A program made the translations under genes and the position numbers. Shown here one piece after another: positions 1-15,841 of a stretch of DNA of 64,000 bases. The DNA lies in contig JBIKLL010000002.1 of the NCBI GenBank assembly GCA_044359815.1, positions 1 through 64,000 on the forward strand, in the 5' to 3' direction. The notes under the pieces are model-generated. The model was not told the origin of the DNA. It searched no databases and saw nothing but the letters and a program-made list of their open reading frames with translations. Positions within the stretch are counted from its first letter, which is position 1. Every line of letters starts with the position of its first letter. Source of the stretch: Pseudobdellovibrionaceae bacterium. Its GTDB lineage: Bacteria > Bdellovibrionota > Bdellovibrionia > Bdellovibrionales > Bdellovibrionaceae.

Positions 1-16
1 GAGAAGCAGGAGCTGT
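1..16 (+). repeat. 3' end of the conserved core of a fold-back element, truncated by the window start
   Basis: GAGAAGCAGGAGCTGT is identical to 3031-3046 and is followed by AT-rich sequence, as in the other copies. Confidence 0.75.
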
Positions 17-152
17 GACCTATTTTAACAAAATCATACATTCAATTTTCCAAAAAATTTGTTTTGCTGAATCCGTGAAGATTGGTTTTTAATACAGAAT
101 TCAAGACCCATCTTTGGTCGGTGATCCACACACTGAATTTCTTGTGTTTGGT

Positions 153-404
153 CTAGAGGCGGCCGGTGGAAAGCTGATCGATGACCGATTGATGCTGATC
201 ACGCAACGCCAGTTGCAGGTCCTTGGTACCCAATGATGGGCGATTGGCCAAGATATCGTGGTAGGATTTTTTGACTGTTTTGACGACAGCGCCTTCTAAA
301 AAAACTCGGGTAATCACAATCTGATTGTCAGTGCCCCAGTCCTCGGTTTGGACATGGTATTTGAAACCCTTGATATTGACGTCTGAATTAAATCCCCTCT
401 GCAT
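153..404 (-). CDS. small conserved hypothetical protein
   Basis: 83-aa ORF with ATG start; GFNSDV..G..YHVQTEDWG motif that I recall from deltaproteobacterial hypotheticals. Confidence 0.75.
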   Translation of the reverse strand: MQRGFNSDVNIKGFKYHVQTEDWGTDNQIVITRVFLEGAVVKTVKKSYHDILANRPSLGTKDLQLALRDQHQSVIDQLSTGRL

Positions 405-726
405 ACAGAAACTACGGTAGCAAAAACAAAAATCCGTGGCAAAAAATTTTTGAATTGTGATTTAAAAATAGTCTTTGCTGATTGAACAACCAGTGTCTTG
501 GGGAATCTGACAGTCCTGGTCCTTTGCAGAAACTGATTTTTTGCAGGGAAAATATGCCGACAAACAATAATCACATTTGCGATCACAGTATCGAAATATC
601 AGAATGATATGTTTCATACTAAATCGCATTTTCAGTTTGGTATGACGAACCCGACCTTGGTGTTACAAATAATCTAACACCTGTCAAAAGGCTGACCAGC
701 AAAATCCATCACGTTGGGGTCTAACC

Positions 727-742
727 TGGCAAAATCATTGCA
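727..742 (+). promoter_or_regulatory. sigma54 -24/-12 promoter
   Basis: TGGCAAAATCATTGCA, GG-N10-GC spacing, 35 nt upstream of ATG 778. Confidence 0.7.
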
Positions 743-777
743 TATTCTAATGGTATACGGGGCGGGGGAATATCAAA

Positions 778-1347
778 ATGAGACAGCTTTTAGCAGTGGT
801 TATAGTGTTGTTTTCGGTATCAGCAATAGCTGCTGAAGGCGAAACAGTTAAAAAATCACGTTCAAAACTGGATACTAAAAAAGAAGACAAGCTTTTAAAA
901 CGTCTTGATAAATTTCAAAATAAATTTTGCACTCAGGCTGATGAGTCCAACGCTGCAAACTGCGCACAATTGCGTGGTGAAATTGCTCATACAAAAGACA
1001 TTGTTCAACATTTTAAAGAAGGCGCTGCTGAACGCGCAGACATCGCCGCAAAAGTAAAATCCATGCGAAAATTAGCCAAGGAAATCAGAAAAAACCATAA
1101 ACTGGCAAAAAACAATCGCATCGGTGCAAAACAAAAACGTGTGGCCCGCAATCAGGAAATTAAGAAGATGCAAAGCGATGTTTCCAGCGAAAATTTTATT
1201 AAGGCCCATGGTACTAGGACTGAAGTCGTAAAACGCGATCCAAGCAGTGTTGATGATGGAGCTCGTATTCAACTTAAAGTAGACTGGGATGTAAACCGAA
1301 TCCGCCCTGCCTTTCCTGCTCAACAAAGCAGTTCAGGCGTGAATTAG
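778..1347 (+). CDS. secreted basic hypothetical protein
   Basis: signal peptide (MRQLLAVVIVLFSVSAIA), G-rich RBS, helical Lys-rich body. Confidence 0.8.
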   Translation: MRQLLAVVIVLFSVSAIAAEGETVKKSRSKLDTKKEDKLLKRLDKFQNKFCTQADESNAANCAQLRGEIAHTKDIVQHFKEGAAERADIAAKVKSMRKLAKEIRKNHKLAKNNRIGAKQKRVARNQEIKKMQSDVSSENFIKAHGTRTEVVKRDPSSVDDGARIQLKVDWDVNRIRPAFPAQQSSSGVN

Positions 1348-1358
1348 GAGAATATATT

Positions 1359-2783
1359 ATGAAAAATATTTTTGCTTTGTTTTTAATTGTGGGAGTTTCG
1401 ATACATGGCTTGTTAGCGAGGGCGGCGGATGGCAACCAATTCCCCACCAGCGGTATGACTCAAGCACAAATTGATTTAATAATGAACAGATGTGATATCA
1501 CAAAACAAACAACGCCTCCTTATACAAAAGTTCAAAAGGATTGTTTAGACAAGTTTTTACCCATCGGCAATCCAACAGGTACTTGCACTGAGTTTGCTAG
1601 AGAATATAAAAAATATGCTGAAGCCTGTGCGGGTAACAAAGTTTCATTGGCAGAATGTGCTGATAAGCTGAATGAATGCCAGGACGAACTTTCTGGCACT
1701 GGTGGTGATTCTGCTGGATCCATTGGAATCCAAATGATGAGCATGTTTGGTATTAACGCCGATTCAGTCGGTCAGTTCAGTTCAAGCTCATGTTCAACCA
1801 TCACTTCCAAGGACTATCATGCTGAACTTCGCAATATGGAATCTGATACCAGAAATATGGAAGAACAGCTGGAAAGAGCCAACGAAGAATTAGCCAGAAA
1901 TCAAAAAGACACCTTGGACGAGCGCAAAAAAATTGCCCGTGAAGCCGTAGAATTGGACGAACAAAAAGCAAAAGATAAAGTCGAGCGCCAAAAGCAAGAA
2001 ATGGAAGACGGCGTAGCTGCCCAAGAATCCTTTGCACGGATGGTTGAAAATATCGATAAATTGCAGGCTGACACCATCGAAGCCACCAGACAGCGCGATC
2101 AATTGATGATGCAAAAAACCAAGGTTCTGTCTGCGCTGAATAATAACTACGTCAAAGTCGTCTGCACTGTTGAAGCTAAAAAGAAATTTTCAGAACAGGG
2201 ACAACAACGTGCTGGTACAATTTCGTCACTGTCTGGCAAAGCCGGCAATGTGAAATTGGCTGTAAAAACAATCTTTCAGGCCTGTGTGGATAAAATGATC
2301 CTTGAGCGCGAGGGCGAACGCAAATCATTGGAATCACAAATTCAAGCAGCTGATGCCCGCATTACAGGTTTGAACCGTCAATTACAGCTTTCAAAAGAGT
2401 CCTTAAAGTTAATGGAAGCTAATGTGGCCAAGGCCCAACAGATGAGAGCCGAAGAAACCGCCAACGCTGAACAATCTTATCTGGCAAAAAAGAAAAATTT
2501 TCTGCAGGACTTGATTGATCTACAGGCTAACTTTCAGACAGCTCAAAGAAATCATTCACAAAAGGTTTCCAGGTTGAACAAGGGCATCATGGCTGCCAAA
2601 ACTAATTTTTACAGCTCGTTTTCAAAACCAGTTTCTGGCGCGACAAAAACCATCGCAGATATTCAAGCAGAAGCTGAAAACATCAGAGCTTTTGCCAGCT
2701 CAACCAATAATTGTGGATTTGATCCTAAGACAATGCAGTTAAGAGACACATCTTCTGATAAACCGGCACCTGGAGTCAATTAA
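1359..2783 (+). CDS. secreted Cys-containing long coiled-coil hypothetical protein
   Basis: AGGAG RBS, signal peptide, Cys-rich N-terminal region, extended helical heptads. Confidence 0.85.
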   Translation: MKNIFALFLIVGVSIHGLLARAADGNQFPTSGMTQAQIDLIMNRCDITKQTTPPYTKVQKDCLDKFLPIGNPTGTCTEFAREYKKYAEACAGNKVSLAECADKLNECQDELSGTGGDSAGSIGIQMMSMFGINADSVGQFSSSSCSTITSKDYHAELRNMESDTRNMEEQLERANEELARNQKDTLDERKKIAREAVELDEQKAKDKVERQKQEMEDGVAAQESFARMVENIDKLQADTIEATRQRDQLMMQKTKVLSALNNNYVKVVCTVEAKKKFSEQGQQRAGTISSLSGKAGNVKLAVKTIFQACVDKMILEREGERKSLESQIQAADARITGLNRQLQLSKESLKLMEANVAKAQQMRAEETANAEQSYLAKKKNFLQDLIDLQANFQTAQRNHSQKVSRLNKGIMAAKTNFYSSFSKPVSGATKTIADIQAEAENIRAFASSTNNCGFDPKTMQLRDTSSDKPAPGVN

Positions 2784-2890
2784 AGGGACTAACCAATAAA
2801 AACCCTTGGCGGCGGATCAAACTAAAATCCGCCCCACAGCAATAAAAAATTAAGCCCTAATAATCCTTCAGTCCTGAGCTCAGTCTCAGG

Positions 2891-3146
2891 ACCTACTGTC
2901 TGGATGCAATCAATCAATTTTTCCTGGCCCCAAAAAATACTTCTTATACAACTATTGAAAAACAATTATTTGCACTTTCCCTTTTAAGGGATCTCCGCGG
3001 AGTCTGGATGACGGGGGCTTGGCCCGAGCGGAGAAGCAGGAGCTGTATCCCTTAAAAGGGAAAGTGCAAATAATTGTTTTTCAATAGTTGATTATAGGTT
3101 TTATTCTGGGCCAAAAAAATTGATTGATTGCATCTAGTCTGTAGGT
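2891..3146. repeat. long fold-back element with conserved GC-rich core
   Basis: perfect 44-bp IR 2949-2992/3047-3090 and perfect 20-bp IR 2903-2922/3115-3134 around core 2993-3046. Confidence 0.95.
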
Positions 3147-3230
3147 ACTAAAACATAATTATCTGCCACAAGGGCTAAATCCCCGACAAACACGTAGCCG
3201 CTACAGCAATTTACCGGCACAATCTAAGCT

Positions 3231-5972
3231 ATGTCACAACTTAAAAAAAAGCTTTTAATCGCCGGTCTGATTGGTTTTGTCGTTTGTGGATTTACAGCGT
3301 GGGGTGGATATATTTATCTGAAATACACCCTGCCCAAATTATTTTCTGTCGAGGACTACGATCCCTTGTTGGTCACAAAGGTTTACGACAGAACAGGTAA
3401 AGTTTTGGGACAGTTTTTTAAAGAACGCAGAACACTGATGCCTTACAGTGAATTTCCTAAAGACCTTGTCTATGCTTTTTTAGCAGCCGAAGACGATCAG
3501 TTTTTTCAGCATAAGGGGATTAATTATATTGCCATTTTTCGTGCAACTATAGCTAACATACTGGCAGGTCACACTGTGCAGGGTGGATCCACTATAACCC
3601 AACAGGTTGCTAAAACATTTTTTCTGTCGTCTGAAAAAAAGCTTATCCGTAAAATCCGCGAAGCCCTGCTGGCCACCGAAATGGAAAAGCATTTATCCAA
3701 AGAAGACATTTTGTATTTGTACCTGAACCAAATTTATTTTGGTCAAGGCGCTTACGGGATTGCTACAGCTTCTGAAACCTATTTCAGAAAACCTGTAAAG
3801 GACCTAAACCTGGGTGAAATGGCAATTTTAGCAGGATTGCCAAAAGCCCCCAGCGAATATTCGCCTATCAAAAACCCCTCGCGCGCCAAGGAACGACAGG
3901 TCTATGTGTTGAACCGAATGGCCGACGTGGGATTTATCACCAAGGACCAAGCCACAAAAGCCGCCGAACAACCTGTGAATGTTTATTTTCGCGAGAAGTT
4001 CGAAGACCAAGCCCCCTTTGCTCTGGAAACTATCAGACAAATTTTAGTTCAGAAAATCGGCGAAGATTTGATCCTGGAAAAGGGCGTCAAGGTCTACACC
4101 AGCATTGATTTAAAAGCTCAGTTATCGGCACAGGATTCGTTAAGCAAAGGTTTAAAAGAAGTCGACAAACGACAGGGGTTCCGTGGACCCAAGGATAATT
4201 TTACTGACCCCCAAAAGGTCGGTGATTTTTTGCTGAAAACCCGCAACGAGCTGATTGCCAACAAAATCCCCGAGCGCACGATCATGCCCGATGGTAAATT
4301 CAAAGACTACGGTCCACTGGATTTAAATTATGATTTAAAAACTGCAGGGCTTCCGTTTTATCTGACCCTTGAACAAGAAGCCGAAGCCATAGTTTCAAAA
4401 GTCGATGATCAATTAGGATTGGTATTTGTCAGAGTCGCAGAAATCGAAGGTCTGATCGATCTGGAAACCATGGATTGGGCACGCAAACCCAACACCAACA
4501 AAAGATATGATTTAGACACCATCAAAAAACCCAGCGAGGCTTTGAAAGTTGGGGACATTATTTCAGTTAAAATCGTCAGCGGAAAATTTGCACCCACATC
4601 CAGAATCCAAAAAATAATGTTTGCCAAAACTCCCAAGGGAAAACCGGCACAGATTGTTGGACCCGAAATTAATTGGGAAAAATACGCCGAAGTCGAACTT
4701 GAACAAGAGCCTTTGCTGGAATCAGGATTAATTTCATTTGATCAGCAATCACAACAGGTCATCGCCATGGTTGGTGGTTATGATTTTAATCGAAATAAAT
4801 TTAATCATGCCATACAAGCAGCCAGACAAACCGGATCATCCTTTAAATCCATTGTTTATTCTGCAGCTTTGGACAAAGGCTACCACGCCAGCACTCCGAT
4901 TATGGATGCCCCTATTGTTTACGAAGAAGAAGCCAAAGAAGACAACGAAGGCCAAGAAACAAACACAAAAGTCAGCAAAGACAACAAAGACCAAAAGGAC
5001 ACAAAGGTCTGGAAGCCCGACAATCACGGTAAAAGTTTTGGTGGCGATATTATTTTCAGAAACGCTATCGTAAAATCCCTTAATATCCCAACGGTAAAAA
5101 TAATCGAGGACATCAAGGTTCCCTATGTGGCCGACTATGCAAAACGCTTGGGGATTTTTAGTACTTTAAATTTAGATTTCACATTGGCGCTGGGATCCAG
5201 CAGCTTAACCCTGTATGAAATGACAAAAGCATTTTCGGTTTTTGGACGTCAGGGTAAGCGGATCAGACCATTGATCATTCAGAAAGTCCTTGGCCGTACA
5301 GGCACAAAATTGTCAGACGAAATTGGACTGGATGTCAGATTTGAAAAAGAAATTTCAACCATTGATACGGATTTTGAAACCCGCAGATTGGCTTATCTGG
5401 AGGATTTGAAAAAAAATGTCAAAACCCCCGAAGAACAAGAAAAGCTTAAGAAAACTTCTATCGATCCCAATATATTTTTTGAAAACCCTGATCAGCTGAT
5501 CAAGCCCACCACAGCCTATTTGACGACGTCGATGTTAAAAGCCGTCGTTGAAGACCGCAATGGTACAGGCCAAAGAGCTAAAGCCTTGGGACGAGAAGTC
5601 GCAGGCAAGACAGGCACCACAAATGGCTATATTGACGCATGGTTTATAGGCTATACACAACAGGTTGCGACGGGTGTTTGGGTTGGCTTTGACCAAGAGA
5701 AATCCATCGGCAAGGGCGAAGTTGGCGGCCGAGCGGCACTTCCGATCTGGCTTGAGTATATGAAAACGGTGCACGAAGATTTGCCTCAGGTTAATTTTTC
5801 TGTGCCGCCTGGGATTGTGTTTGCAAATATTGATGCCGAAACTGGCGAGCTGGCCAGCGGTGGATCAAAAAACATTGTTCGACAAGCCTACTTGGAAGGA
5901 ACTGAACCCTCAACAAAGCGTGATAAAAAAGAAGAGGACACAGACTTTTACAAGCAGGATTTAACTGAATGA
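3231..5972 (+). CDS. mrcA: penicillin-binding protein 1A (transglycosylase/transpeptidase)
   Basis: EDDQFFQHKG, GGSTITQQ, SSFK (SxxK), SLN and KTGT motifs; N-terminal TM helix. Confidence 0.95.
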   Translation: MSQLKKKLLIAGLIGFVVCGFTAWGGYIYLKYTLPKLFSVEDYDPLLVTKVYDRTGKVLGQFFKERRTLMPYSEFPKDLVYAFLAAEDDQFFQHKGINYIAIFRATIANILAGHTVQGGSTITQQVAKTFFLSSEKKLIRKIREALLATEMEKHLSKEDILYLYLNQIYFGQGAYGIATASETYFRKPVKDLNLGEMAILAGLPKAPSEYSPIKNPSRAKERQVYVLNRMADVGFITKDQATKAAEQPVNVYFREKFEDQAPFALETIRQILVQKIGEDLILEKGVKVYTSIDLKAQLSAQDSLSKGLKEVDKRQGFRGPKDNFTDPQKVGDFLLKTRNELIANKIPERTIMPDGKFKDYGPLDLNYDLKTAGLPFYLTLEQEAEAIVSKVDDQLGLVFVRVAEIEGLIDLETMDWARKPNTNKRYDLDTIKKPSEALKVGDIISVKIVSGKFAPTSRIQKIMFAKTPKGKPAQIVGPEINWEKYAEVELEQEPLLESGLISFDQQSQQVIAMVGGYDFNRNKFNHAIQAARQTGSSFKSIVYSAALDKGYHASTPIMDAPIVYEEEAKEDNEGQETNTKVSKDNKDQKDTKVWKPDNHGKSFGGDIIFRNAIVKSLNIPTVKIIEDIKVPYVADYAKRLGIFSTLNLDFTLALGSSSLTLYEMTKAFSVFGRQGKRIRPLIIQKVLGRTGTKLSDEIGLDVRFEKEISTIDTDFETRRLAYLEDLKKNVKTPEEQEKLKKTSIDPNIFFENPDQLIKPTTAYLTTSMLKAVVEDRNGTGQRAKALGREVAGKTGTTNGYIDAWFIGYTQQVATGVWVGFDQEKSIGKGEVGGRAALPIWLEYMKTVHEDLPQVNFSVPPGIVFANIDAETGELASGGSKNIVRQAYLEGTEPSTKRDKKEEDTDFYKQDLTE

Positions 5973-8815
5973 GGGAAATACACCTTTGGGGTGTAAAGCA
6001 AAATAATCTTAAAAATATCGAAGTCAAAGTGCCCATCGGCAGTATGACCGTCGTTTGTGGACCCAGTGGGTCTGGCAAATCTTCTTTGGCTTTTGAAACT
6101 TTGTTTGCCGAGGGTCAACGTCGATTTATCGAAAGCATGTCCAATTACGCCAGACAGTTTTTAAACAAGGCTCCCAAGCCTGACATCGAAGGCATCAACA
6201 ACATCCCGCCAGCGATTTCGATCGAGCAAAAGAATTCTGTTAAAAGCTCTCGCTCGACCGTCGGTACATCCACAGAAATCATAGATTACCTGCGCTTGCT
6301 GTACGAAAAAATCGGTAAACCCTATTGCCCCACACACAAAATTCCTACCGAGCGACAAAGTGTCACCGAAGCCACTGATAAAATTTTAGCAAATTTTAAT
6401 GATCAGCGTGGTTACATATTGATCGAAATTGGTTCGCAAAACCGATTGGCCGAGGGCAAAAAATTATTGTCTCTGATTTTACAAGACGGATTTGCCAGAA
6501 TCATTCAAGTCAAAAAATCTTCTAAGGCTAAATCCAAAGATATCACTTACACCCTGGGTGATCTGATTGATCTGAAAGATCCCAAAGTTTTAAAAAAGGG
6601 TTTACCCAAAGAAGACTTTTGTTTGGTCATTGATCGCTTGGCGTTTAATGATTCCGAAAAAGGCCGCATAGCTGATTCAATCACTCAGGCTTACGAATAC
6701 AGTCTTAAATATTTATCCAATGTCACTGTCAGAAATTGTTTGGTGATTACGACAGAAGGCAAGGCCTTGAAATTAACCGAGGAAAGCTGTTGTCCAATCT
6801 GTGGGTACAATCCTCCGACTGTTTCATCCAGATTGTTTAGTTTCAACAGTCCGGTTGGCGCCTGCCCAACCTGCAAAGGATTTGGTAATATCCTAAAGCT
6901 TGATGAAGCCAAGGTTGTCCCCAATCCAAAATTATCCATCAAAGACAACGCATTGAACCCTTTTGGCATGCCCAGTGCCCAGAGCGACAAAAAAGATCTG
7001 ATGAGTTTCTGCAAAAAATATCGCATCAAAACTAATGTTGCTTGGGAAGATCTAAAACCAGAGCAAAAAAAATTAATCTGGGATGGCAACAAAGATTTTT
7101 ATGGCGTGGTGGGATTGTTTAAATATCTGGAAGACATTAAATACAAAATGCATGTTAGGGTTTTTATTTCCAGATACAGAAGCCCATCGGTCTGTCCTGA
7201 TTGCGAAGGCTCCAGACTGTGCAAAGATGCTCACAATGTTTTTATCCAAAAATACAACATCGTTGATTTTGGCAAAATGAACATCGCAAAACTGCAAAAA
7301 GTTTTTCAAGAAATCAAACTGACCCCTTCTGAAACCGAAGTCGCCATCGAGGTCTACAAACAAATCGGCTCAAGACTGGATTATCTGATGCGTGTTGGAG
7401 TTCACTACCTGACCTTGGATCGCGAAACCAGGACATTAAGCGGTGGCGAATACCAGCGAATCATGCTGGCTAATCAATTGGGTATGGGTTTATCGCAATC
7501 GCTGTATGTGTTGGATGAGCCCACTGTGGGATTGCACCCCAGGGATAATGACAGATTGATTTCGATTCTGAAGGATTTAAAAAATTTGGGAAATACACTG
7601 GTGGTTGTTGAACACGATCATGATGTTATTAAAAATAGCGATTATGTGATTGAAATGGGTCCAGGCAGTGGATATCTGGGTGGAAAAGTCGTTTACAGCG
7701 GTGCTACCAAGGATTTTTATGACTGCAAAGAATCCAATACCAGCTATTATTTAAAACCCAAAAAAAACTGGGTGCCCATGAAGGCAGTCAGACCAGTTGA
7801 TATTGAATCTTATAAATACAAAATCGAACTGCAGGGAGCCTCAGGAAATAATCTTAAGGAAGTGGATTTACAAATTCCGTTAAACCGACTGGTTTCAATC
7901 ACAGGTGTTAGCGGCAGTGGCAAATCCACACTGATCACCCACACATTGTATCCTGCATTGGCTCGCGAACTATCCATTGATTTTATGACAGCCAAACCAT
8001 TTCAGAAAATTTACGGCAGTGATCAAATCAAATCCGTATTGCTGATTGACCAGTCATCCATTGGTAAAACAGTTCGTAGTACACCAATCACATATCTGAA
8101 AGCCTTTGATTCAATCCGCGAACTGTATGCCTCGATACCCGAAGCCAAAGCCCGCGGATACACTCCTGGAACCTTTAGTTTGAATGTGGATGGCGGCAGA
8201 TGCCCGTCCTGTCGTGGCACTGGGGTTGAGGAAATCGACATGATGTTTATGGATAACATGATCATCCCCTGTGATGTGTGTGACGGCAAAAAATACCGAA
8301 ACGAAATTTTGGAAATTCAATACAAGGGTAAAAACATAAACGAAGTTTTAAGCATGACGGTTTTTGAAGCCATGAATTTTTTTGTGGCCTATCCTAATAT
8401 CAGAAAGCCATTGAGTGTGTTAAAAGAAGTCGGTTTAGATTATCTGAAACTGGGACAATCAGCCGCAACCCTAAGCGGTGGTGAATCCCAAAGACTTAAA
8501 ATCGCCAAAGAAATTTCTCAGGTTCAGCAAAAATCAACGCTTTATATTTTGGACGAACCAACCACAGGACTGCATTTTAAAGAAATAGAATTATTAATGA
8601 AGGTTTTAAATAAACTGATTGAGGCCGGCGGATCCGTGATCGTGGTTGAACACAATTTGGATGTGATACTGGGTTCTGATTACATCATAGATTTAGGACC
8701 AGATGCTGGTGATAAAGGCGGTCAAATTGTTGCCACAGGAACTCCAGAACAGATAATGGAAAATAAAAAAAGCCTAACAGGACAGTATTTAAAAAAATAT
8801 GCTCTCAATCATTAG
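5969..8815 (+). CDS. uvrA: excinuclease ABC subunit A
   Basis: two Walker A motifs (GPSGSGKSS, GVSGSGKST), LSGGE signatures, zinc fingers CPTCKG and CPSCRG. Confidence 0.95.
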   Translation: MREIHLWGVKQNNLKNIEVKVPIGSMTVVCGPSGSGKSSLAFETLFAEGQRRFIESMSNYARQFLNKAPKPDIEGINNIPPAISIEQKNSVKSSRSTVGTSTEIIDYLRLLYEKIGKPYCPTHKIPTERQSVTEATDKILANFNDQRGYILIEIGSQNRLAEGKKLLSLILQDGFARIIQVKKSSKAKSKDITYTLGDLIDLKDPKVLKKGLPKEDFCLVIDRLAFNDSEKGRIADSITQAYEYSLKYLSNVTVRNCLVITTEGKALKLTEESCCPICGYNPPTVSSRLFSFNSPVGACPTCKGFGNILKLDEAKVVPNPKLSIKDNALNPFGMPSAQSDKKDLMSFCKKYRIKTNVAWEDLKPEQKKLIWDGNKDFYGVVGLFKYLEDIKYKMHVRVFISRYRSPSVCPDCEGSRLCKDAHNVFIQKYNIVDFGKMNIAKLQKVFQEIKLTPSETEVAIEVYKQIGSRLDYLMRVGVHYLTLDRETRTLSGGEYQRIMLANQLGMGLSQSLYVLDEPTVGLHPRDNDRLISILKDLKNLGNTLVVVEHDHDVIKNSDYVIEMGPGSGYLGGKVVYSGATKDFYDCKESNTSYYLKPKKNWVPMKAVRPVDIESYKYKIELQGASGNNLKEVDLQIPLNRLVSITGVSGSGKSTLITHTLYPALARELSIDFMTAKPFQKIYGSDQIKSVLLIDQSSIGKTVRSTPITYLKAFDSIRELYASIPEAKARGYTPGTFSLNVDGGRCPSCRGTGVEEIDMMFMDNMIIPCDVCDGKKYRNEILEIQYKGKNINEVLSMTVFEAMNFFVAYPNIRKPLSVLKEVGLDYLKLGQSAATLSGGESQRLKIAKEISQVQQKSTLYILDEPTTGLHFKEIELLMKVLNKLIEAGGSVIVVEHNLDVILGSDYIIDLGPDAGDKGGQIVATGTPEQIMENKKSLTGQYLKKYALNH

Positions 8816-10541
8816 AAAAATCATACCCATTGAAATCAGACGGATCCTACGGGAACTGACGGCATTTAAAAAGGCCCTGTGGATTGTTGCTATCAGCGGT
8901 ATTTTGAATTCTCTGTTTATGAGCGCCAATGTGGGATTGATCAGATCCCTGATGAACGAAGCCTCCAGTGATTTTCGCAGGGTCTTGGACATTGCGGGAC
9001 TAATGCTGGGTTTTGCTTTGTTTGCTGGGATTTCCAGATATTTTCATATTTTTACTATGAACTACACTGGTGAAAAGGTCGTTCAAGGTTTACGACAACA
9101 ATTGCAAAATAAATTTATGAATCTGAATCTGACCTTTTATAATAAATTTGAATCTGGTTCCGGCGGAATGATTTCCAGAATTTTAAACGACATGGTCGTG
9201 GTTCAAAACGGCCTTAGGATGTTTGCAGATTTTTTCAGGGAACCCTTAACTCTGTTTTTTATGATTGGATGGTTATTTTATATTAATGCCAGACTGACGT
9301 TTGCGGCATTGATCGTGTTGCCAATAATTTTAATATTTTTAAAACAGATTTCTAAAACTATAAAAGATTTTTCTGAGCGGGGCCAACAGCAATTGGAAAG
9401 AATCACAGCAACCATCAAAGAAACTCTGGATGGAGTCAGGATTATCCAGTCATTCAATCTGGAATCAGAAATGTCTGAAAAATTTAAATCTGAAGGCAGA
9501 AATTATTTGGAATCACGCAGAAAGGTTCATTCACGCATCGAGGTAGCCAGTCCTGTGAATGAATTTATCGTCACATTTGTTGTTTTGTGCATAGTGGTTT
9601 ATTTAAGCTACGAACAATCCATTGGTAGGGCCTCCATAGGTGATTTTGTTGGTTACATTGCCGCTCTGTTAGGATTAAGTCCTCCGATTAAGAAATTGCA
9701 AGAAAGCTATGTACGGATTCAAGAAACAATTGTGTCAGCCAGAAGGATTTTTCAAATCTTGGACGATGAAAACGAAGTACCTGGTGGCACTTCAAACGAA
9801 CCCTTTCCTAAAAACTGGGACAGCATCGTTTATAAAAATGTTTGGTTTAGTTATCAAAACAATCCCGTACTGAAAAATTTCAATCTGACAATTAAACGGG
9901 GCCAGATGATCGCCATCGTTGGAGCCAGCGGCAGCGGTAAATCCACAGTCGTGAATTTGCTGGAAAGATTTTTTGATGCGACTGAGGGTAAAATCTTAGT
10001 CGGCGGTAAAGACATCACTCAGATTAATCTAAAGGAACTGCGTTCAAACATTGGATTGGTTTCACAAGACGTATTTTTGTTTAGTGACTCGATCGAACGC
10101 AATATCTGGGCCGGTGATTTTTCAAAAGCACCGGATAAAATCACATCTGCTGCTCGCGCTGCGAACGCCACAAATTTTATTGAACGCATGCCTGATGGTT
10201 TTAAAAGTCGTGCCGGAGATCGGGGAAGCTTAATGTCGGGCGGTGAAAAACAGCGGGTATCCATTGCCAGGGCTATATTGAAAGACGCTCCGATTTTGAT
10301 ATTGGATGAAGCCACCAGCGCACTCGACACCAATAGCGAGCAAGAAGTCCAAAGGGGCTTGGATACGCTGATTGAGGGCAGAACCACAATCGTGATCGCT
10401 CACAGATTATCGACAGTCGCAAAGGCTGACATGATCATCGTTATGAAAAACGGCGAAATCATCGAGTCGGGTTCACACGAAGAACTAATTCAAAAGCGCG
10501 GCGAATATTCGCAGCTGCACGAAATCCAAACAGGCCACTAG
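8799..10541 (+). CDS. msbA: MsbA-like ABC exporter (fused TMD-NBD)
   Basis: multi-TM N-terminal domain, GASGSGKST, MSGGEKQR, ILDEATSALD. Confidence 0.8.
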   Translation: MLSIIRKIIPIEIRRILRELTAFKKALWIVAISGILNSLFMSANVGLIRSLMNEASSDFRRVLDIAGLMLGFALFAGISRYFHIFTMNYTGEKVVQGLRQQLQNKFMNLNLTFYNKFESGSGGMISRILNDMVVVQNGLRMFADFFREPLTLFFMIGWLFYINARLTFAALIVLPIILIFLKQISKTIKDFSERGQQQLERITATIKETLDGVRIIQSFNLESEMSEKFKSEGRNYLESRRKVHSRIEVASPVNEFIVTFVVLCIVVYLSYEQSIGRASIGDFVGYIAALLGLSPPIKKLQESYVRIQETIVSARRIFQILDDENEVPGGTSNEPFPKNWDSIVYKNVWFSYQNNPVLKNFNLTIKRGQMIAIVGASGSGKSTVVNLLERFFDATEGKILVGGKDITQINLKELRSNIGLVSQDVFLFSDSIERNIWAGDFSKAPDKITSAARAANATNFIERMPDGFKSRAGDRGSLMSGGEKQRVSIARAILKDAPILILDEATSALDTNSEQEVQRGLDTLIEGRTTIVIAHRLSTVAKADMIIVMKNGEIIESGSHEELIQKRGEYSQLHEIQTGH

Positions 10542-10753
10542 ATCCGTCTTAAGAAAACACATTAAAGAATTTTTCTATAAAATATTTTGTTCTTTTTTTA
10601 TTTAAATAGGCCCTCCGCGGAGCCTGGATGGCGGGGGCTTGGCCCGAGCGATCTGAATAGAGATACGAAACAAAGAGCTGTGGCCTTTTTAAGTAAAAAA
10701 AGAACAAAATATTTTATAGAAAAATTCTTTAATGTGTTTTCTTAAGGCGGATC
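10541..10753. repeat. long fold-back element with conserved GC-rich core
   Basis: 72-bp IR 10541-10612/10682-10753 with 3 mismatches, around core 10613-10681. Confidence 0.95.
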
Positions 10754-10916
10754 GCTGGACCTTTGGCTGATTTTGTTGGCTGCGGGCGGTGGGGGTGATG
10801 GGATTTTGCTGGACCTTGGTCGAAAAAATTATCGTGAAAGTGTCTGCGCACTTTAGATTGTCCAAACTTTTGACGACAAGAAAAGTGACAGTTTCGGTAA
10901 ACAAAAGGAGAACATC

Positions 10917-12479
10917 ATGATCAATTGGGATGAGTTTGAACATATACATGTGATCAAACGACTTAGACATATATTAAGCGCATGGTGGAATGTCGACGTT
11001 ATCTTTACTGACGAGCGTGGACAGATCAAAGGCTTTGATTCTGGCAAAACCGTTTTTGCAAATCCAGCAAACGGATTTTTAATGTCAAAAGAATCTGCAG
11101 TGAACGCGCTTAGCGAAATGGTTGTAAAAACAATCGACGATCTGCGAGTTTCTGACAATCGATTTGCGATGAAGCGATGGGATATGGGTTCCTTTGATGT
11201 GGGGATCTTTCCAATCATGATCGACAATGATTTTATGGGAACAGTTGTTGCCATGGGATTTTTTAAGGAAGCAAATTTTTCTACAAGAGTTCCAGAGGTT
11301 CGCGATCGATTAGCAGCTTTTGGCGCCAGTGGCGAACTGGTTGAAAAAGCACTTTCTAAATTTAAGCATTTAGATGACAACGAAAGACAACACTTCTGTG
11401 AAATCTGTGATCTGGTTGCTCAAGAGGTCGTAACATTACATCTGGAAATCACCAGACGTGAAGACAGAATCCGCGAGCTAAACAAAGAACTGGGAAGCCG
11501 ATATAAATACGACAACATGATTGGTAAATCTAAACCAATGCAGGCTTTGTATGCTTTATTGGATAAAATCAAACACGCTGATTCAACTGTGTTGATTCAA
11601 GGTGAAAACGGTACTGGTAAAGAACTAATTGCCAAAGCCATTCACTATAATTCGCACAGAAAAGATAAAACTTTTGTGATTCAGAACTGTTCTGCATTTA
11701 ATGACAATTTATTAGAGTCAGAATTATTCGGTCACGTTAAAGGTTCGTTCACTGGCGCTTTAAAAGACAAAAAAGGTCTGTTTGAAATCGCTGATAAGGG
11801 AACATTTTTCCTGGATGAGATCGGTGATACTTCACCAACCATGCAGGTTAAATTATTACGTGTTCTGCAAGAGGGTACTTTTTTACCTGTAGGTTCGACT
11901 GAAGTTCGCAAAGTTGACGTGCGAATCATCGCAGCTACAAATAAGAATTTAAAAGAAATGGTTGAACAAGGCACCTTCAGGGAAGACTTGTACTACCGAT
12001 TAAACGTGATCAATCTGCGCGTTCCACCACTGCGTGAACGTAAAGAAGACATTCCATTATTGGCAGAATTTTTCCTGCAGCGAGCGGCTGAAGCTCAAGG
12101 CGGCGCAAAACGCATGCTGACCAAGCGAGCTCTTGAAAAATTATATGATTATCCATGGCCAGGAAACGTCAGGGAATTACAAAACGAAATGGAAAGACTG
12201 GTAGTATTGGCTGGCGAAGAAACCAAGATTTTGCCAGAAATGCTGTCGCCAAAAATCTTAGAAGTTAGTGAAAAATCAAAAGTCCAAGGTGCTCGATTAC
12301 AAGGTAAACTGAAAGACGCACTGGAAGAGCTTGAGCGAGATATGATTAAAGAGGGCCTTCGCCGAACTGGATGGAATAAATCCAAGCTGGCCAAGGAACT
12401 GGGGATATCTCGTGCTGGATTGATTATGAAAGTAGAAAAGTACGGCCTTGATAAACGAAAAGTGGCCAGAGCTACATAG
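10917..12479 (+). CDS. sigma54-dependent Fis-family enhancer-binding protein with PocR-like N-terminal sensor
   Basis: GENGTGKE, ESELFGH, GSFTGA, FLDEIG, WPGNVREL and a C-terminal HTH. Confidence 0.95.
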   Translation: MINWDEFEHIHVIKRLRHILSAWWNVDVIFTDERGQIKGFDSGKTVFANPANGFLMSKESAVNALSEMVVKTIDDLRVSDNRFAMKRWDMGSFDVGIFPIMIDNDFMGTVVAMGFFKEANFSTRVPEVRDRLAAFGASGELVEKALSKFKHLDDNERQHFCEICDLVAQEVVTLHLEITRREDRIRELNKELGSRYKYDNMIGKSKPMQALYALLDKIKHADSTVLIQGENGTGKELIAKAIHYNSHRKDKTFVIQNCSAFNDNLLESELFGHVKGSFTGALKDKKGLFEIADKGTFFLDEIGDTSPTMQVKLLRVLQEGTFLPVGSTEVRKVDVRIIAATNKNLKEMVEQGTFREDLYYRLNVINLRVPPLRERKEDIPLLAEFFLQRAAEAQGGAKRMLTKRALEKLYDYPWPGNVRELQNEMERLVVLAGEETKILPEMLSPKILEVSEKSKVQGARLQGKLKDALEELERDMIKEGLRRTGWNKSKLAKELGISRAGLIMKVEKYGLDKRKVARAT

Positions 12480-14597: not shown

Positions 14598-15442
14598 AAA
14601 AATATAATTTATTTTTACTGTGTGCGGGTGAGGGCACTCGGCTGCGACCCTTTACCATGCAGCGGCCTAAACCATTGATACCTTTTTTAGGCGTCCCTCT
14701 GGTTGAGTGGGTCAGAAGATTATTCAACCCGTCTTATGTGGATAAAACTGTGGTTAATGTCTTTCATTTAGCTGATCACATAGAAAAATATTTTAAATCA
14801 GAAGGGGCGCAGGTGTCTGACGAAAGACATCGTTTATTGGGAAGCGGTGGTGGAGTTCACAAAGCCCTCAGCTTATTGTCCACCACTGAGAGCTTTTTTT
14901 ATGCTAATGCAGACGAAATTATTTTGCCTACAAACAAAAGCTGCATCGATCGCTTGATTGAAAAACACGAGTCCACTCAGGCCATTGCAACCCTGCTGGT
15001 GACAAAGCATCCCCAGGTCGGTGAAAAATTTGGCGGAGCCTGGAGCAAGGATCATGAAACCGTTCAAATGTTTTCCAAAGAAAATCCAGGCAAAGGTTTT
15101 TATGGGTTTCATTTTGTCGGAATCATTTTGATTAATAGCCGTATCAAGAAATATTTTAAACCACAGGTCACAGACGAAAATATTTTATACGAGACCCTGT
15201 CCAAGGCCATCAACAATGGCGAAAAAGTCATCCTGCACGAAGAACCCATGGACTGGTTTGAGACGGGCAACCCCAAAGATTTTCAAAACTCAGAAAGCCA
15301 GATTCATTTTCATATACAAAATAATGACAGACCTTGGGTGAATGAAATCAAAGGATTTATACAGGGCAAGGGAACACAGGAAGTCATTGTGACGGATAAT
15401 CGCAAAAAATCCGAGGACAGAATCAAAGACCTGCTGAGCTGA
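14594..15442 (+). CDS. murU: MurNAc-1-phosphate uridylyltransferase-like nucleotidyltransferase
   Basis: CAGEGTRLRPFT..RPKPL, LLGSGGG; 4-bp overlap with amgK. Confidence 0.75.
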   Translation: MKKYNLFLLCAGEGTRLRPFTMQRPKPLIPFLGVPLVEWVRRLFNPSYVDKTVVNVFHLADHIEKYFKSEGAQVSDERHRLLGSGGGVHKALSLLSTTESFFYANADEIILPTNKSCIDRLIEKHESTQAIATLLVTKHPQVGEKFGGAWSKDHETVQMFSKENPGKGFYGFHFVGIILINSRIKKYFKPQVTDENILYETLSKAINNGEKVILHEEPMDWFETGNPKDFQNSESQIHFHIQNNDRPWVNEIKGFIQGKGTQEVIVTDNRKKSEDRIKDLLS

Positions 15443-15841
15443 AGGCAAAAAGGTTTTCGTTCACAGAAAATCAACAATGTGTCTTTTAATTCCAGATGGC
15501 ATCTTTTTCTGTGATTGATTTGAATTTTAGAAATTAGGTCTATAATTTTACACCTAGTGAATACTTGCTAACGGCCGCAAGCTCATCTCTCGTATCGAGT
15601 CATTTATTTGAATTAGGTTTATGATTAATAAATTACCATAAACCTAATTCAAATAAATGACTCGACACCAGATATGCCATGCGCGCTCGCAAATGTATTC
15701 ACAAGATGTAAAATTATAGACCTAATTTCTAAAATTCAAATCAATCACAGCCTTGTGGGCCAGTTATTTCTTAACAAAACACATTGTTGATTTTCTGTGA
15801 ACGAAGTTTTTTGGTTCAGCTCGACAGGTATTTGATTCTGT
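15417..15841. repeat. 425-bp nested imperfect palindrome
   Basis: perfect paired blocks of 27, 44 and 29 bp (15456-15482/15779-15805; 15509-15552/15707-15750; 15595-15623/15637-15665) and a 13-nt central loop. Confidence 0.95.

Follow-up and report, generated by a model that had tools for sequence, protein, structure and literature searches.

The first 64,000 nucleotides of contig JBIKLL010000002.1 (forward strand; assembly GCA_044359815.1 of a Pseudobdellovibrionaceae bacterium), here called the window, contain copies of a palindromic repeat in which a short GC-rich core sits between long inverted arms. The fold-back family to which these copies belong, named family A, is real and no artefact. 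It has not been described before and is of a general kind that is known: its members are, in our judgement, probably non-autonomous, hairpin-shaped (fold-back) mobile repeats of the kind represented by MITEs (miniature inverted-repeat transposable elements) and the enterobacterial repetitive intergenic consensus (ERIC). The family is dispersed, and its copies have settled at the 3′ ends of genes. Comparison of copies indicates that compensatory change has preserved the predicted pairing of core and arms, also at one orthologous locus across the Bdellovibrio-genus group. We picture the element as a unit of about 145–340 bp, in which a folded core of 54–70 nt would be carried on a stem of 40–100 bp.

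A dispersed family at the 3′ ends of genes

The window is part of a genome (G000) of 2.95 Mb in 125 contigs with 41% G+C. An earlier note on this DNA had drawn a 38-nt core pattern from two copies in the window, where it matches twice as against no match in 100 shuffled sequences. With up to 3 mismatches this pattern has 15 matches in G000 (none for the reversed control), and a core profile (nhmmer, E<1e-8) has 63. Four of the latter are too close to contig ends to be judged; 55 of the other 59 carry inverted arms with at least 38 aligned positions that are 80–100% complementary, the whole palindromes spanning 144–342 bp. The four without such arms are located at C85:28583, C53:9117, C49:29278 and C8:22483. 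The earlier note had spoken of a family, and these numbers bear it out.

Of the 59 judged matches, 37 are found between convergent open reading frames (ORFs), 19 between co-directional ones and one between divergent ones; for two, a flanking ORF is present on just one side. Frequently the arms begin within a few bases of stop codons. This placement is compatible with a role at transcript ends, without showing one. A large share of the convergent intergenic regions of the genome is filled by family A, which matters for annotation and for transcript 3′ ends in these predators, and the repeats partly explain why the assembly of G000 is in 125 pieces.

A comparison of window positions 1–12000 and four related loci with Rfam 15 yielded no family that reaches its threshold; the sole overlap, to Phe_leader (32.4 bits against a threshold of 55), has its source in the AT-rich stem. 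The core pattern has no match in viral contigs, and the literature searched contains no account of such repeats in Bdellovibrio. Eight attack-phase small RNAs have been reported, none of which is called repeated or palindromic in the accessible part of that report (PMC3627812).

A conserved core with a predicted four-helix fold

The copies in the window are made up as follows.

1–71 (+): 3′ part of copy 3, with the core tail at 1–16 (GAGAAGCAGGAGCTGT) and the right arm at 17–71
2888–2992 (+): left arm of copy 1, pairing with 3047–3149
2993–3046 (+): core of copy 1, 54 nt, with predicted helices P1–P4
2993–2998 with 3028–3033: predicted helix P1 of copy 1 (from pair counts and compensatory changes)
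3002–3004 with 3010–3012: predicted helix P2 of copy 1, loop TGGAT (from pair counts and compensatory changes)
3015–3018 with 3022–3025: predicted helix P3 of copy 1 (from pair counts and compensatory changes)
3035–3037 with 3042–3044: predicted helix P4 of copy 1, loop AGGA (from cross-genus comparison)
3047–3149 (+): right arm of copy 1
10541–10612 (+): left arm of copy 2; its first base is the last stop-codon base of the ABC-exporter ORF 8799–10541
10613–10681 (+): core of copy 2, 69 nt, a variant with a long 3′ module, ATCTGAATAGAGATACGAAACAAA, in place of the short P4 hairpin
10682–10753 (+): right arm of copy 2, complementary to the left arm at 69 of 72 positions

The two complete copies are built as the earlier note had described them, including the 72 bp arms of copy 2 with their 3 mismatches; only the palindrome of copy 1 is slightly longer (2888–3149 instead of 2891–3146), and its arms are complementary at 87 of 99 aligned positions. 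The arms of copies 1 and 2 cannot be aligned with each other, as had been claimed (identity 0.54, where shuffling gives 0.46 as the median and 0.63 as the 95th percentile). The third core end at 1–16 is genuine and belongs to a copy whose remainder, left arm and core head, forms the end of contig C41. As the last 55 bases of C41 are those of window positions 17–71, copy 3 is complete, but split by an assembly break inside the repeat. All three copies have the same orientation, again as had been noted. Copy 1 has an ORF without Pfam match on one side and a class A penicillin-binding protein gene on the other.

The core has the layout CTCYGC (5′ side of P1), GCC-NGGAN-GGC (P2), GGGC-loop-GCCC (P3) and GCRGAG (3′ side of P1), followed at its 3′ end by a small hairpin such as AGC-AGGA-GCT (P4), by GT and then by the arm. 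It is thus predicted to be a fold of four helices, upheld by compensatory changes, in which P1 encloses P2 and P3 and has P4 beside it, the total length being 54–70 nt. Within G000, P3 also occurs as GGGAGC..GCTC and GGGGAC..GTCC and P2 as GTC..GAC, and in P1 the Y pairs with the R, with T-G combinations occurring and C-A combinations not. The first 38 nt of the two window cores had been reported to differ at two positions, which proved to be T/C at 3003 and A/G at 3011. As these are the two sides of one P2 pair (GTC..GAC in copy 1, GCC..GGC in copy 2), the two differences represent a single compensatory change.

An alignment fitted to the model, which takes in 39 matches from G000 and six other genomes (37 distinct sequences), has 95.2% of its cells paired, as compared with 35–51% when partners are slid. 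In it, 10 of 19 pairs are altered on both sides; among 500 shuffles, not one attains these values. As an alignment of this type leans towards its model, 11 copies from one syntenic locus were aligned separately with MAFFT only. For these, RNAalifold predicts 50 pairs, which cover the arms, P1, P2, P3 and P4, and 27 of the 50 show compensatory double changes. The core is also modular, since P2 is absent from some copies and a longer hairpin replaces the short P4 in others, such as window copy 2.

Arms that vary but continue to pair

The core is better conserved than the arms, and the arms stay complementary copy by copy (0.96 within a copy, against an identity of 0.59 between copies), both as the earlier note had stated. 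The latter value is the median for the inner 46 nt of the arms; in shuffled sequences the median is 0.46, and 0.63 marks the 95th percentile. Pairwise identities were used for this comparison, as an nhmmer arm profile is too insensitive on AT-rich sequence (19 arm hits). Variation of the arms is not without limits: 26% of 1485 arm pairs lie above the shuffled 95th percentile, and the inner ~45 nt have a family consensus, roughly gaatttgaattttaaaaatctaaatatttgattttatttaaaaagg, which is visibly common to the arms of a second repeat family (family B, see below). An arm identity of at least 80% with another copy was found for 9 of 55 copies, which indicates that arms travel with copies. Copies of family A are mosaics, and pairs with the closest arms often differ in core variant.

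Two of the earlier proposals find no support here in the form given. The first described the family as the reverse of a MITE, with a conserved middle and varying ends; this conflicts with the inner-arm consensus that extends to family B, and copies in a related genome (G012) have terminal inverted repeats that are conserved, as well as direct repeats resembling target sites, like those of an ordinary MITE. The second had the arms generated locally; arms travel, however, and three sites in G000 that appeared to be empty have turned out to be relics of deletions.

Spread among relatives

A first model of the element finds matches in 6 of 24 other genus representatives of the same family and in none of 16 genomes from other families of the order. 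With a second model, built from all matches of the first, the element is present in 50 of 150 further genomes of the family and, with G000 counted, in 19 of 41 genera; incomplete genomes may hide further copies. Its distribution is uneven, with 26 of 32 genomes positive in genus g9 and 0 of 33 in genus g3. A core pattern of the g9 type identifies 22 loci, nearly all in records named Bdellovibrio or Bdellovibrionales, among them named chromosomes of Bdellovibrio bacteriovorus and of Bdellovibrio sp. isolates and several metagenome-assembled genomes (MAGs); one locus is in a MAG labelled Kineosporiaceae. All inspected copies from relatives are built alike: the core is conserved, and the inverted arms on which it sits are specific to each copy.

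In two related genomes, short conserved asymmetric sequences lie immediately beyond the variable arms (loci L077–L084 for both genomes). For G145 they are TCGAAGGCAAA and CCCCGCAYYAC, for G019 TTCGAAGAC and GTTCGGAGAC. They may represent a target that is preferred and becomes duplicated, or belong to a composite repeat. In G019, a CGAGTTCGGAGAC motif also occurs directly after a family A palindrome.

Mobility and turnover

One indication of movement comes from G012, where the copies have shared tips and end in GAAACTGGCCCC...GGGGCCAGTTTC. Exact direct repeats of 6–11 nt (AAAGAA, TTCTAGTTT, AGCCTTTCA and AAATAAAAACG, found by script) flank four of its nine copies and a fifth is flanked by ACTCGAT, as judged by eye; among 72 mismatched control pairs, not one has a repeat as long as 6 nt. 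Direct repeats flanking the whole palindrome are the mark of a staggered-cut insertion.

A second line of evidence is provided by ten metagenome contigs that carry the core and are 88–97% identical to G000. At C27, compared with L109, G000 keeps both arms while the core has been deleted, with breakpoints at a repeated AAGGT (C27:~7170–7230). At C116 (compared with L110/L104) and C73 (compared with L105), G000 keeps only the outer part of one arm, and the breakpoints are at repeats of 7–11 nt. These are the three seemingly empty sites, and a clean pre-insertion site, for which the earlier note had proposed to search, was not found among the related metagenome contigs; for a copy in G145, the other species of its genus are too diverged (~70–77% identity) to supply one. 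Elsewhere the site is occupied in both genomes. C43 and L106 have flanks, tips and core type in common while their inner arms cannot be aligned, and in C92 versus L103/L111 and C14 versus L108 a different element is present at the same site, the core variant differing as well. Taken together, the deletion relics and the different copies at matching sites indicate that copies disappear by deletion and that others take their place at the same permissive sites. An AT-rich palindrome without any core was seen at C58:44886–44976.

We favour, as the probable explanation, that family A consists of non-autonomous fold-back mobile repeats. A transposase acting in trans would move the whole palindrome. 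The core would act in folded, single-stranded form, as RNA or as single-stranded DNA of the written strand, either as a module needed by the mobilising machinery or as an RNA structure used by the host. The arms would be free to change as long as they pair, and cores and arms may be reshuffled between copies. The earlier note had offered two alternatives, a non-autonomous element recognised in trans and a structured module on a variable stem; both survive and are mutually compatible, with no support for the local generation of the arms as put forward there.

Several results weigh against mobility of this kind. Searches for Y1_Tnp domains and multi-copy ORFs yielded no transposase for family A, other transposase families not having been scanned. 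G012 contains no longer element with the same ends and no pair of tips at the distance of an insertion sequence. In G000 there is no signal of target duplication (a flanking repeat of at least 6 nt in 8 of 55 copies, against 5.9% of control pairs), and the palindrome ends share no common sequence. The similarity of arms and that of cores are uncorrelated between copies (r = 0.02), which a simple model of a whole unit copying itself does not predict. Strand bias is slight among the arm mismatches of G000 (63 G-T against 52 A-C); in 29 copies from other genomes the numbers are 57 and 40. At the 19 co-directional sites the element has no preferred orientation, being directed along the genes in 9 cases and opposite to them in 10, which speaks against simple co-transcription. 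A search of public runs with the syntenic locus of one relative (G008) yielded nothing beyond metagenome contigs that had small shares and raw-read sets that were unrelated. Finally, a copy is retained at one locus in 11 genomes of the Bdellovibrio-genus group, several of which have just 1–2 matches; this agrees less well with a purely selfish element than with a host function.

A possible structured RNA with a host function

The last point leads to the alternative that family A is primarily a structured non-coding RNA or a cis-acting RNA that serves the host, the many copies in G000 being a secondary burst. The RNA might, for example, bind a protein through two GGA loops, or act as a hairpin that stabilises or terminates mRNA. 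We consider this possible, but unlikely as the primary nature of the family.

The 11 genomes concerned belong to genus g9, the Bdellovibrio-genus group, and have one copy at the same place, between genes of the MmgE/PrpD family and of the phosphoenolpyruvate-mutase/isocitrate-lyase family (PrpB-like). The arms at this locus differ from species to species with pairing kept, and the double changes in more than half of the predicted pairs, described above, come from these copies. Several genomes of the group, mostly complete assemblies, contain only 1–2 matches each. Among the predicted pairs at the locus there are 26 G-U cells as compared with 4 A-C cells, and the written strand is predicted to be more stable than its complement in 11 of 11 copies (mean difference 8.6 kcal/mol). 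These counts are from related species and hence not independent. In G000 the written strand is the more stable one in 40 of 55 copies (mean 3.0 kcal/mol). The evidence that one strand matters is moderate, and it does not tell RNA from single-stranded DNA.

The written strand is opposite to both flanking genes at the syntenic locus, so that the stable strand would be antisense to both and its transcription would require a promoter of its own. A simple consensus scan found neither promoter nor terminator inside window copies 1 and 2. An intrinsic terminator, that is a GC-rich stem-loop with a T run, was rejected for these copies, as no terminator-like site is present inside either of them.

The loops themselves point in both directions. 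RNAs bound by CsrA/RsmA carry invariant GGA motifs in hairpin loops of the transcribed RNA. In family A the loops of P2 and P4 are mostly NGGAN, and GGA represents the most conserved loop letters in the two hairpins. However, a sizeable minority of the G000 copies have ACGA as their P4 loop, and variants with missing or swapped P2 or P4 modules are hard to fit with a partner that strictly binds GGA. The failure to reach any Rfam threshold also tells against a host RNA, as do the direct repeats in G012 and the turnover of sites, both of which show mobility.

Other fold-back families and a possible exchange of modules

Family A is not the only fold-back family in G000. A scan for long inverted repeats gave 149 candidates, 51 of them in family A; the other 98 correspond to 89 places, of which 56 belong to family B, a second repeat family that is larger than family A and consists of near-perfect palindromes of 400–500 bp with two GC-rich modules. 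A genome-wide BLAST gives 132 and 72 hits for these modules, in which the ends of many contigs lie, and the arms share the tip CTGGCCCAC. The remaining places belong to family C (linked to a RAYT-like gene, see below), to family D, or to both. In the window, a family B element of ~425 bp is present at 15417–15841, a near-perfect palindrome with the modules TTGCTAACGGCCGCAAGCTCATCTCTCGTATTG and TTGCGAGCGCGCATGGCATATCTGGTGTTG, and its AT-rich arms resemble those of family A. Family D, a fourth fold-back family, was seen at C2:3183–3501, C68:3724–3983, C106:37404–37781 and C38:1199–1356; its core starts with CGAGTTCGGA, ends with CCGCTGT(C/T)TGAG and is surrounded by copy-specific arms. Family A palindromes can be nested within outer, copy-specific palindromes.

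A wider, more speculative reading, which we regard as doubtful, combines these families into one modular system: a single AT-rich palindromic chassis, common to families A, B and perhaps D, would exchange GC-rich modules, and the module of family A would have a function as a single-strand structure. It would probably be an RNA whose two GGA hairpins bind protein, retained at one Bdellovibrio locus since the species diverged. If true, family A would be a structured RNA that spreads on a hairpin vehicle and not a decaying transposon remnant.

A related explanation reduces the mobile unit to the core, which would be exchanged or would enter pre-existing AT-rich palindromes such as old repeats or terminator hairpins, the arms belonging to the target or to a shared chassis. 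It would account for the missing correlation of arms and cores and for the different core variants on the closest arms, for an arm consensus in common with family B in spite of its other GC-rich modules, for the nested palindromes, and for the pair C43/L106, in which flanks, tips and core type agree but the inner arms cannot be aligned. Nevertheless, we hold it to be improbable. The direct repeats in G012 flank the whole palindrome and not the core, the sole coreless palindrome that could be traced (C27 versus L109) is a product of deletion, and no truly empty palindrome matching a filled one was found. Recombination between copies explains the mosaics equally well.

The search for a mobilising enzyme

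The earlier note saw no mobilising gene in the window, and none was found there: the whole contig of the window is free of Y1_Tnp matches, and the ten largest clusters of repeated ORFs listed include no ORF on it; other transposase families were not scanned. The note had also suggested a test for linkage to REP-associated tyrosine transposases (RAYT; REP, repetitive extragenic palindrome) or related Y1 enzymes. Family A would then be a REP or a REP doublet (REPIN) moved by RAYT, or a derivative of an IS200/IS605-type insertion sequence moved by a Y1 HUH transposase, with P2 and P4 as the recognised hairpins. P2 and P4 are indeed similar hairpins on the same strand, and G000 has 9 Y1_Tnp matches.

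These comprise a RAYT-like gene (C8:9768–10106) and eight Y1-like paralogs. The RAYT-like gene is the only one of its type and has the repeat of family C (AAAAGAGACCGTACGAC...) on both sides, not that of family A. Family C is AAAAGAGACCGTACGACTTTTTCTGTCTACA, with 53 BLAST hits, and together with its RAYT-like gene it resembles a classical REP/RAYT pair. The Y1-like paralogs (~206 aa, 80–86% DNA identity; contigs C23, C47, C48, C49, C56, C100, C125 and C8) match Y1_Tnp weakly (23.9 bits against a cut-off of 23), and each is preceded by a different short tandem array, for example of CTAACTAT, CCGATT or TTGGTTGA units. None of the eight is flanked by family A, although a degenerate core without arms is present ~800 bp away from one of them, on contig C8. 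Proteins related to these paralogs were detected in 103 of 150 further genomes of the family, in many of them in multiple copies, and their distribution does not track that of the element: they are present in 26 of 33 genomes of genus g3, which is free of the element, while none was detected in G019 with its 10 element matches, in G008 or in G001. In addition, flanking direct repeats as in G012 are not expected from HUH transposition, and the orientation of copies by chromosome half is mixed in complete genomes (judged by eye, with the origin assumed near base 1). With neither adjacency to family A nor co-occurrence across genomes, a RAYT/Y1 mobiliser is rejected for now, and we consider an origin of this type very improbable.

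Two further gene families that end in an HNH-endonuclease motif, one with four copies (C35:422–1780, C107, C17, C34) and one with three (C19:583–1965, C48, C8), are possibly mobile genes; they were rejected as partners, as they are not consistently adjacent to the repeats. A parent insertion sequence was likewise not found among the multi-copy ORFs of G000, in that neither the Y1-like nor the HNH genes are consistently beside the repeats, other transposase families not having been scanned.

It is hardly conceivable that the fold-backs are assembly artefacts, the concern raised in the earlier note: G000 is a draft of 125 contigs, several of which break inside repeats, but the same architecture is found in single-contig relatives, in named complete chromosomes and in ten independent metagenome contigs.

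Comparison with known systems

Small palindromic repeats are common in bacteria, and how they move and what they are used for is mostly not known. Family A offers several handles on this problem: the fold of its core can be tested, one locus has a fixed copy, and the carriers include cultured isolates whose genomes are complete. As the copy number ranges from 1 to more than 60 between relatives, mobility and function are both open to bench tests.

With Rfam families, family A has in common a multi-helix fold supported by covariation, although it reaches no Rfam threshold. Like REPIN/REP sequences with their RAYT, it is a dispersed hairpin repeat with long vertical persistence in which the pairing of the two halves is kept, as far as the accessible parts of the REPIN literature describe these (PMC3116915, PMC3337134, bioRxiv 10.1101/2021.07.10.451892). 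The arrangement is opposite, since a REPIN has conserved paired halves, the REP sequences, around a variable spacer, whereas family A keeps its centre constant between paired halves that diverge (median identity 0.59). Membership of the REP/REPIN-RAYT group was rejected, as the RAYT-like gene is flanked by another repeat, Y1 genes do not co-occur with the element, and conserved paired halves are lacking.

MITEs such as the Correia/NEMIS elements of Neisseria have terminal inverted repeats and target duplications. Family A resembles them in being small, non-coding and placed at gene ends, and in G012 also by tips starting with GAAACTGGCCCC and by direct repeats of 6–11 bp. It differs in that G012 yielded no parent insertion sequence and G000 neither fixed termini nor duplications, in that pairing extends along the whole arm and not along the tips alone, and in that the core is the part conserved across 19 genera.

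The ERIC elements of enterobacteria, also called intergenic repeat units (IRU), are likewise imperfect palindromes of 100-odd bp or more that are intergenic and occur in either orientation; those of the ERIC type are transcribed. In both, copy number varies between related species from few to hundreds, some copies persist at orthologous sites, the stem shows compensatory changes and no transposase is known. The likeness is one of behaviour: family A resides in another host clade, its arms are longer and nearly free in sequence, and it has a GC-rich core, predicted to form four helices, that is far better conserved than the arms. What distinguishes family A is thus a predicted multi-helix centre kept across 19 genera, on arms that appear to be constrained mainly to pair.

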